DNA from: Nannocystis sp. RBIL2
GTDB taxonomy: Bacteria > Myxococcota_A > Polyangia > Nannocystales > Nannocystaceae
Reading direction: 5' to 3'
DNA: 64,000 bases
Assembly (NCBI RefSeq): GCF_026626745.1
Contig: NZ_JAPNJW010000002.1
Span: 1,382,151 to 1,446,150, forward strand
This document shows positions 59,447 to 60,001 of this stretch, one piece after another (position 1 is the first letter of the stretch; each line of letters begins with the position of its first letter). The notes under the pieces are model-generated. The model was not told the DNA's origin. It did not search any database and saw only the letters and a program-made list of their open reading frames with translations. A program made the position numbers and the translations under genes.

Positions 59447-60001
59447 ATGACTGACGTTAACTCCAAGGGCCCGGCCCCAATTCAGGTCCCGGTGGCCGAC
59501 AGCGCGATCCCGGAGGCCGAGGGCGGCCCTGCGGCACCCACCTCGAACGCCGTCGCCGACGCCCGCGACAAGCTTCTGGCAGCCATTGGCGCCGAAGCCC
59601 AGCTCGTTGCGGAGAAGTCCGCCGGGGATGCGTCCAAGCCGCTCGCGGAACTTGCCCGCGCCTTCAACAATGTGACCATCAAGAACATGATCACCGGTAC
59701 GTCGCAAGCGGACGTCGCCCTGCTCGTGGTGCCTGCAGACCGGGGAGGATTCGAGGGCGCCTTCGCGCGTGAAACCCAAGTGAGGCTGTTGACGGCCATC
59801 GGCGGCGAAGCCCAGCACCTCGCGGAGAAGTCCGCCGGCCAGGCATCCACCGCCCTGGCGGAGCTCGCACACGCCTTTACGCTAGTAACCAGCCCCAGCC
59901 CCGCAGCCGCACGGATCGCGCTCGCGCCCGCAAGCGGCCTCACATTGATGAACGAAGTGGCGATCGACGGGAGTGTGACGGTCACGGTTAGATATCTCTG
60001 A
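59447..60001 (+). CDS. Leader-family protein with duplicated helical segment interrupted by an eEF1A/EFL-like fragment
   Basis: [15 protein letters not shown]...[120 protein letters not shown] is identical to eukaryotic EF-1alpha (bacterial EF-Tu has VKNMITGAAQMD). Confidence 0.55.
   Translation: [184 protein letters not shown]

Follow-up and report, generated by a model that had tools for sequence, protein, structure and literature searches.

What is a fragment of a eukaryotic elongation factor doing between two copies of a helical repeat in a myxobacterial gene? The question is raised by an open reading frame (ORF) on the plus strand, at 59447-60001, of a stretch of 64,000 nucleotides (nt) from Nannocystis sp. 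RBIL2 (contig NZ_JAPNJW010000002.1, positions 1,382,151 to 1,446,150), hereafter called the window. The ORF encodes 184 residues plus a stop codon, and is 100% identical to the NCBI hypothetical protein OV203_34040 of Nannocystis sp. ILAH1. Judged by sequence comparison, its insert is a fragment homologous to eukaryotic eEF1A, and the ORF itself is not a member of a GTPase family. With its two modules, it belongs to a so far undescribed family of small proteins built as mosaics, in which conserved helical modules are combined with varying segments, here called cassettes. The eEF1A cassette is, with high confidence, kept under purifying selection and passed on within the family, in Actinomycetota as well as in this myxobacterium.

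All parts of the gene lie on the plus strand. It is preceded by a 5' untranslated region (59426..59446), recognized as repeat D2 and by alignment as common to the leader units of the locus, which contains the Shine-Dalgarno sequence AAGGAG (59433-59438) 8 nt ahead of the ATG. The leader region (residues 1-38, 59447..59560) carries a motif at 59459-59491 that is also found in two other units of the window and in Streptomyces units (NSKGPAP, G.GPAPI.VP). The first copy of the helical-hairpin module (residues 39-77, 59561..59677), delimited by repeat finder, module hidden Markov model (HMM) and alignment, is followed by the 36-residue eEF1A cassette (I78-R113, 59678..59785), and then by the second copy (residues 114-149, 59786..59893), which is without the N-terminal ADARDK and meets the cassette at LL(T)AIG. 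An Ala/Pro linker, Arg156 and a tail cassette complete the protein (59894..59998); a search with a 40-residue query found no homologue that could be the source of this tail. The module HMM matches the protein twice, at residues 39-85 (E 1e-21) and 113-157 (E 3e-20), and the repeat finder reports a 126-nt unit in three copies, at 58780-58905, 59572-59697 (71%) and 59785-59910 (93%); both methods agree with the initial annotation, which had counted two module copies in the ORF and one in the neighbouring paralogue at 58646..59029. An AlphaFold2 (AF2) model of the protein has a mean confidence (pLDDT) of 64 and contains two confident helical hairpins, with helices at residues 34-57 and 63-83 in copy 1 and at 108-128 and 132-148 in copy 2. 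The cassette forms a low-confidence loop in this model (pLDDT below 50 at residues 86-102) and is predicted to be unstructured, and a Foldseek search of the model against PDB returned generic helical bundles only (E>0.1). With a strong Shine-Dalgarno sequence and the common 5' region in front of each, expression of the leader units is plausible.

The identity of the insert is supported by several searches. Querying 5.8e9 proteins with the whole ORF retrieved apicomplexan eEF1A (Gregarina, Toxoplasma, Eimeria) at E 1.4e-7 to 4e-6, a significant similarity that bears out the eEF1A-like insert first noticed between the module copies; eukaryotic eEF1A was not outscored by any bacterial GTPase family, in keeping with the earlier view that the insert does not come from such a family. 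The 36-residue segment matched archaeal and eukaryotic EF-1-alpha sequences of PDB at E ~1e-5, compared with 0.03-0.1 for EF-Tu, and the NCBIfam models rank in the same order (EF-1-alpha 1.8e-5, EF-Tu 3e-3). Identities over the 36 positions number 31 with Gregarina eEF1A, 29 with the Toxoplasma and Eimeria-type proteins, 25 with other protist eEF1A, 21 with an archaeal factor, 21 with the human and 19 with the yeast protein, and 15 with E. coli EF-Tu. Because the identities with Gregarina and the Toxoplasma/Eimeria-type proteins exceed those with other protists, the signature is of the apicomplexan or alveolate type, and not of the plant or EFL type to which it had been ascribed.

The cassette spans the counterpart of the switch II helix, strand beta4 and the next loop of apicomplexan-type eEF1A; it begins past DAPGHRDF and stops ahead of NKMD. 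The DAPGH motif had already been described as missing, and indeed NNVT stands before the segment. Neither G3 DxxG (DAPGH) nor G4 NKxD is present in the ORF, and a G1 P-loop of the form GxxxxGK[ST] does not occur in the 184-residue sequence. The Pfam GTP_EFTU model matches with 16.1 bits against a cut-off of 26.5, over profile positions 83-106 of 188 only, the EF-1_alpha model scores 22.6 bits against a cut-off of 540, and GTP_EFTU_D2 and D3 have no match in the ORF. The GC content at third codon positions (GC3) of the cassette is 0.73, compared with 0.80-0.87 in neighbouring host genes.

The modules and the leader place the ORF in a large family. A first protein search yielded about two dozen hypothetical proteins of Streptomyces, Kitasatospora and Embleya with a common leader and module, each having a different tail; a profile search of 1.84e9 representatives then gave 195 clusters (defined at 50% identity) at E<=1e-3 and 162 at E<=1e-10, and a genome scan gave 15 Streptomyces and Nocardia loci. 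The hosts are Streptomyces, Kitasatospora, Embleya, Nocardia and this Nannocystis. A family member is composed of a short conserved leader, one to five helical-hairpin modules of ~40 residues, flexible Ala/Thr/Pro linkers, and cassettes; the leader/module consensus of the Streptomyces, Kitasatospora and Embleya proteins includes EGIQQIPAQITV, which is one of two forms of the leader. Among 149 representatives, 124 have a single module, 22 have two, one has three and two have five. Leader and module have no match in Pfam, NCBIfam or PDB sequences, and a literature search that included module peptide strings found no paper describing the family, which thus appears undescribed and unannotated. A tblastn search with one family member found no match in PLSDB plasmids or INPHARED phages, an IMG/VR scan returned nothing, and a scan of JGI metagenomes returned a single 1.5-kb contig.

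Further features recur among these proteins. A second module of small proteins (...VKPEDIGTLS[LI][RE]Y.DG.P..VVSGG..IPAGLTVVD..G..VAAYTA) comes with these leader motifs too and with variable tails of its own, among them AAA Walker B, hnRNP RNP2 and secretin-like pieces. Its genes lie at 3111-4788 (minus strand) of locus L002 and at 3181-4013, 6198-6536, 9058-9435, 11024-11617 and 18152-18475 of locus L018, and it accompanies the helical module both in gene clusters and within single proteins (P0037, P0038, P0059). The C-termini of P0036-P0044 show a recurrent acidic ending (Y..LDGYY.HQ.EE/DD), and other recurrent ends are ...ATLLVTPA and ...KVGLCLELEP; such endings suggest additional common terminal signals.

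The eEF1A cassette is likewise found between modules in Streptomyces (P0003 of locus L001, and loci L012 and L013) and in Kitasatospora (P0002), with a diverged copy in P0052. In Nei-Gojobori estimates, its 24-codon core in the window differs from the three Streptomyces copies by a dS (synonymous divergence) of 0.75-0.94 and a dN (nonsynonymous divergence) of 0.04-0.07, that is, a ratio (omega) of ~0.05-0.09. The same pattern holds for a ribosomal protein S1 block compared between the window and Nocardia (dS ~1.1, dN 0.04, omega 0.03), for the PIGDDY tail compared between the window and Streptomyces (dS saturated, dN 0.08, omega 0.03), and for flagellin and CS1-like cassettes (omega 0.06-0.29). 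The module itself, compared between the window paralogue and Streptomyces, gives dS 0.4-0.9, dN 0.07-0.19 and omega 0.15-0.30. By these values the cassette is more constrained than its scaffold, and the linkers adjoining cassettes are unconserved; this constraint is not due to a GTPase fold, because the cassette is predicted as a low-confidence loop. Neutral evolution at the observed dS would erase the similarity. The eEF1A piece is therefore very probably a cassette inherited within the family and kept by a purifying selection that exceeds that on the scaffold.

How the cassette came to this genome can be read from its junctions. The paralogue at 58646..59029 (plus strand; P0007), defined by searches and alignments, consists of a leader, one module and the tail ...NGSPIGDDYIVIDVPRP..., and an 85-nt repeat of 5' untranslated region plus leader (D2) is common to it, to ORF 59447-60001 and to a third ORF at 54182-54445. 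Both tails of the window locus are recurrent: that of the paralogue (NGSPIGDDYIV.DVP.P) in six family clusters, Streptomyces among them, and that of the two-module ORF in clusters P0049 and P0056. The DNA of module copy 1 is near-identical to that of the paralogue in its 5' half and diverged in its 3' half, the change falling at GAAGCCCAGC, and module copy 2 is identical to the paralogue from GAAGCCCAGC on, for 73 nt (59806..59878, equal to 58801-58873), inside 126 nt at 93%. The DNA identity of the second copy to the paralogue had been noted before and stands as this exact 73-nt run, although the copy reads GGCGGCGAAGCCC and not GGCGCC. Such a tract appears to be the trace of a gene conversion or exchange that took place recently.

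The extra period has its two breakpoints at GAAGCCCAGC, and, given the identity tract, the ORF therefore amounts to a gene like the paralogue that has gained one period, made up of a module 3' half, the cassette and a module 5' stub; this is the product expected of homologous exchange with a module-cassette-module donor. The cassette was probably installed in this genome by such an exchange within the module, and modules in general would mediate cassette exchange, serving as portable homology for shuffling. The initial annotation had spoken of an insertion between the module copies; the junctions point to homologous exchange inside the module and not to an illegitimate insertion. Nor is the cassette a fresh capture of eukaryotic DNA by this genome, because the same cassette, with similar boundaries, occurs in Streptomyces and Kitasatospora, and its copies retain their amino acids at a synonymous divergence close to saturation. 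The unit of interest is thus a cross-phylum mosaic family, as recurrent cassettes occur across genomes, and not one local insertion.

The repertoire of cassettes is wide, and the view that only fragments of the translation machinery are involved proved too narrow. Profile searches support a flagellin cassette without its first ~55 residues (NCBIfam 2.8e-55), a VgrG cassette (2.4e-19), an RRM cassette (4.6e-16), the C-terminus of eukaryote/archaeal uL14 (uL14_arch, 3e-4), and cassettes of HSP70 and of a Gram-negative porin (Porin_4). In locus L001, a module takes the place of ~24 residues within the C-terminal helix of the flagellin piece, and the native flagellin end ...LLR continues directly into the next unit. 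From motif reading, further candidate cassettes correspond to EF-Tu G1 (PHVNVGTIGHVDHGRT), EF-G switch I (RGITITSAAI..FWKG), EF-G domain II, C2 (DDFIGEG), AAA Walker B, M28, secretin, RHS core and hnRNP-type RNP2. A cassette detectable by Pfam is present in ~10% of the 149 representatives, and the 130 tail clusters comprise 106 singletons and ~24 recurrent ones. One apparent member (P0032/L019), in which an eEF1A piece is followed by an SdhA-like piece, was rejected: it lies on an 886-nt ENA contig of 0.6x coverage in a genuine eEF1A exon context, and this metagenome contig is probably eukaryotic or chimeric and irrelevant to the family. The bias towards abundant proteins prompted the idea of cDNA capture by reverse transcriptase, which was also set aside, as no reverse-transcriptase gene was found near any locus; as an ancient origin of the cassettes, such capture may still apply.

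The surroundings of the ORF include a further leader unit, at 54182..54445 (plus strand), in which the leader is fused straight to a fragment of ribosomal protein S1 domain 1 (Pfam E 3e-5) with no module. That this unit has the same leader and 5' untranslated region, as had been proposed, is confirmed by the repeat finder and by alignment. The fragment is non-myxobacterial, since it is 88% identical to Pseudomonas S1; with a GC content of ~0.53 and a GC3 of 0.58 in a region of ~0.69 GC, it is barely ameliorated, far less so than the eEF1A cassette. The S1 cassette is also embedded in a Nocardia protein (P0059, locus L017), alongside the EF-G domain II piece. A 26-nt element, GCCGATGTA(A/C)TTCCGAATGAAGATGA, also written as GCCGATGTAATTCCGAATGAAGATGA, occurs on the plus strand at 54083-54108, 54708-54733, 58373-58398 and 59316-59341 (four matches in the window, compared with none expected by chance). 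It stands ahead of all three leader ORFs and ahead of an operon at 54848-58118 (plus strand), between the leader units, that encodes GSCFA (E 1e-44), WcbI (2e-24) and a family-4 glycosyltransferase. Each element is followed by a short GC hairpin. On the minus strand the element resembles a terminator; terminator-like hairpins of that strand overlap it, and there is no evident gene for them to terminate. Judging by its distribution, the element may be a regulatory site shared by these genes or a small mobile element. An Rfam scan of 53-61 kb found no RNA family, the element included, and a Sigma-70 promoter scan found nothing. The glycosyltransferase has a borderline match to the model "GT4 in conflict systems" (26.7 bits, cut-off 26); the eLife 2020 paper on conflict systems makes no mention of GSCFA, WcbI or GT4.

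The locus is flanked on the left by a disrupted IS66 element (50996..53805, plus strand; TnpB at 51421-51762, C-terminal part of TnpC at 52612-53805), inside which lies an OsmC-like ORF (52151-52747, minus strand), and on the right by an IS66 TnpB fragment (60675..60820, plus strand). These remnants around 54.0-60.1 kb are consistent with an acquired island. Just upstream of the left IS66, 48598-50151 (plus strand) encodes a protein of 517 residues whose C-terminal part is a jacalin-like lectin domain (E 4e-15). Upstream of two of the units, minus-strand frames at 53818-54183 and 58102-58461 may, on a reading by eye, be frameshifted remnants of tetratricopeptide repeats (GYTLMNLAVA...SPAHPEMIQVRL). 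Elsewhere in the family, conserved-neighbour clustering of 17 loci found no common partner except, in three of them, a hemopexin-repeat protein of ~620-690 residues (Pfam 1.2e-17 at the C-terminus; N-terminal domain unassigned) encoded 0.4-2.3 kb from family genes. All three are Streptomyces loci (L003, 3757-5817; L007/L018, 15490-17364; L009, 6533-8527).

What such proteins might do is a separate matter. In the explanation that we favour, the hairpins would act as a scaffold or recognition handle presenting the cassette as an unfolded peptide, the cassette would putatively be released by cleavage at a boundary Arg or Lys, and the peptide would mimic the corresponding native segment, here switch II-beta4 of alveolate-type eEF1A. 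These three steps are put forward together only tentatively, at somewhat below an even chance. The mimic might compete with the native protein for a partner, or co-assemble with that protein, against soil eukaryotes in the case of eEF1A; cassettes of S1, flagellin, porin and VgrG would act in the same way against Gram-negative competitors. An outward-directed role is favoured over self-protective decoys, because the copied proteins are largely non-self for their hosts: eEF1A of alveolate type, S1 of Pseudomonas type, and flagellin, porin and VgrG in Gram-positive hosts. For the explanation as a whole, comprising mosaic family, exchange and mimicry, we regard the balance as even. A broader version is possible although rather doubtful: actinomycetes and at least one myxobacterium would keep a heritable, recombination-shuffled library of in-frame peptides of foreign proteins (protist eEF1A, uL14 and RRM; Pseudomonas-type S1, flagellin, porin, VgrG, EF-Tu, EF-G and Hsp70) as sequence-specific mimics. 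The peptides, taken from the most conserved parts of their source proteins and expressed on the helical scaffold, would be weapons that jam the cognate protein of prey, predators or competitors or co-aggregate with it, or else baits that signal the presence of such organisms; a system of this kind would be the counterpart, at the level of protein, to nucleic-acid-guided targeting.

The cassette boundaries are relevant both to this explanation and to its first rival. When 10 recurrent cassettes were aligned, 8-9 proved to carry an Arg or Lys that is conserved and lies in the first conserved column or immediately ahead of it, following an uncharged Ala/Thr/Pro linker. Examples are AGR...PNGSPIGDDY, Q.R-AGGHKVGLCLELEP, R-DLGKQGYD and K/R-A(V/I)MWTSEEVG, as well as R-(F/V)VMVGGSSRIP, where native Hsp70 has Asp or Glu, and R-MIINHNMNAINTNR, where the boundary falls at Met1 of native flagellin. 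The corresponding residues in ORF 59447-60001 are K79, R113 and R156. An endoprotease might cut at this boundary residue; in locus L001 alone, a Trypsin_2 gene is located 1.3 kb upstream.

Such boundaries would also be expected if the proteins were precursors resembling those of ribosomally synthesized and post-translationally modified peptides (RiPPs) or of secreted peptides, with leader and module recognized by an unlinked enzyme, the tail cores freed after the Arg or Lys, and the resemblance to other proteins reflecting merely the origin of the raw material. In class I lanthipeptides, the leader ends in P-R and is cleaved at that point, and the precursors of prochlorosins combine one leader with many cores. 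The family has in common with RiPP precursors such as cyanobactin PatE, prochlorosins and nisin-type leaders cut after Arg that recognition sequences stand beside hypervariable peptides, that a genome holds many precursors and that the boundary residue is basic; its N-terminal ~75 residues are conserved, its C-terminal 20-60 residues are hypervariable, and its genes are clustered in many copies per genome. However, a modifying enzyme, a RiPP recognition element (RRE) protein, a protease or a transporter is not consistently adjacent in the examined loci, and no linked tailoring enzymes were found. The cores are not rich in Cys, Ser or Thr; they are conserved foreign segments, some being flagellin pieces of ~300 residues or entire RRM domains, and in multi-module proteins modules also follow cassettes. 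Nor would origin alone explain the near-identity of cassettes to their sources under strong constraint. We therefore consider precursors of this kind unlikely.

The retention of native-like sequence could alternatively mean that the cassettes are integrated decoys or baits, which imitate the targets of enzymes of competitors or invaders (proteases, ADP-ribosyltransferases, kinases) and thereby absorb the attack or trigger a response. Several cassettes do derive from proteins that toxins classically attack (EF-Tu G1 loop, EF-G switch I, S1, Hsp70), the hosts are multicellular, conflict-rich bacteria, and the glycosyltransferase next to the window units is the one with the borderline conflict-system match. 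The integrated decoys of plant nucleotide-binding leucine-rich repeat receptors (NLRs) offer a parallel, as pieces of unrelated proteins in a scaffold are kept close to the original for the sake of recognition; the family differs in its bacterial hosts, its short linear segments and the lack of an NLR/STAND sensor. Decoys are quite unlikely, for a self-protecting decoy should copy self, whereas the copies are mostly not the host's own versions (the Gram-positive hosts of the flagellin, porin and VgrG cassettes are non-flagellated), and a sensor or effector domain is neither fused to these proteins nor encoded beside them.

A third alternative is that a fast-recombining multicopy family, neutral or selfish, has accumulated stray gene fragments that have no function of their own. 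The loci are rich in insertion sequence elements and small ORFs, the identity tracts are mosaic with breakpoints bounded by modules, the majority of tails are unique and unidentifiable, and no partner genes were found. Against this alternative, which appears highly unlikely, stand a cassette omega of 0.03-0.2 at dS up to saturation across phyla, cassettes more constrained than the scaffold next to unconserved linkers, and ORFs that remain open and retain strong Shine-Dalgarno sites. Finally, an assembly artefact or dead pseudogene peculiar to this genome, as might arise if 126-nt repeats with a 73-nt identical tract misguided the assembler, is so improbable as to be negligible, given that the placing of the eEF1A cassette between two modules recurs independently in no fewer than four further genomes and that the annotated protein belongs to a 6.14-Mb contig, with its frame intact and a good Shine-Dalgarno sequence.

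Several points also weigh against the favoured explanation of mosaic family, exchange and mimicry. The omega values are biased downward, because the blocks are short (17-58 codons) and were picked for conservation, and codon amelioration inflates dS. Copies of foreign proteins are shown for a minority of members, as ~10% have a Pfam-detectable cassette and 106 of 130 tails are singletons, and several cassette identities (EF-Tu G1, EF-G, C2, AAA, M28, secretin, RHS) are based on motifs only. The distance from module to first Arg is indistinguishable from chance, for which reason the basic boundary residue is a lead and not a result. A 36-residue piece without G1, G3 and G4 cannot bind nucleotide. 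Protein search and genome scan found no other myxobacterial member, which leaves one myxobacterial genome only; across the loci, a protease, secretion gene or modifying enzyme is not consistently adjacent and no signal peptide is apparent. Neighbour genes, secretion signals and enzymes give direct support to none of the proposed functions.

Comparison with other known systems helps to delimit the family. It resembles polymorphic toxins (Rhs, CdiA, LXG) in its conserved N-terminus, hypervariable C-terminal cassettes, clustered multicopy genes, homology-driven swapping and horizontal spread. Unlike these, it alternates modules and cassettes in one protein, and its cassettes are pieces of 20-60 residues from housekeeping or surface proteins, not enzymes; a Pfam scan of 149 members found no toxin domain, no trafficking domain, immunity gene or conserved downstream partner was found, and an RHS-core fragment occurs merely as a cassette. 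Like CRISPR arrays, the genes present a leader followed by repeats that alternate with foreign-derived inserts, but the repeats are 126-nt coding modules conserved as protein, in one to five units, the inserts are translated in frame, ancient and shared between genomes, and no cas genes occur in the window region or the examined loci. Rickettsia palindromic elements are similar as in-frame units of ~120 nt inside coding sequence (compare the flagellin piece at L001:11015-12427), whereas the module is conserved as protein and not as DNA (omega 0.15-0.3, with many synonymous changes) and the genes around it are foreign fragments. The hairpins of the AF2 model recall the helix-turn-helix hairpin of ~100 residues in WXG100-like type VII substrates, although the turn reads S-A-G-Q/D, with no W-x-G, and helix 2 is followed by A-Y/F-A-L-V-T with no D/E at +4, and thus by no YxxxD/E export signal; a type VII secretion system is not expected in a diderm myxobacterium. 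Engineered dominant-negative or aggregation-seeding peptides, such as N-terminal S1 fragments that block ribosome assembly and the "Pept-ins", likewise use a short segment derived from the target, but they are laboratory constructs, whereas interference by the cassettes is hypothetical. We know of no natural gene family of interfering target-copy fragments.

If the cassettes do act by mimicry, microbes would have a means of antagonism or sensing that is new in principle, in which short segments from the most constrained part of a foreign protein are turned against that protein or serve to detect it. It would account for ~200 unannotated protein clusters in antibiotic-producing bacteria, would offer natural, evolution-tested peptide leads against apicomplexan-type eEF1A and bacterial S1, EF-G and Hsp70, and would imply the transfer of sub-domain fragments from eukaryotes to bacteria followed by their maintenance under selection. 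Even with a mundane function, the family is a clean case of cross-phylum cassette shuffling by means of a coding repeat.

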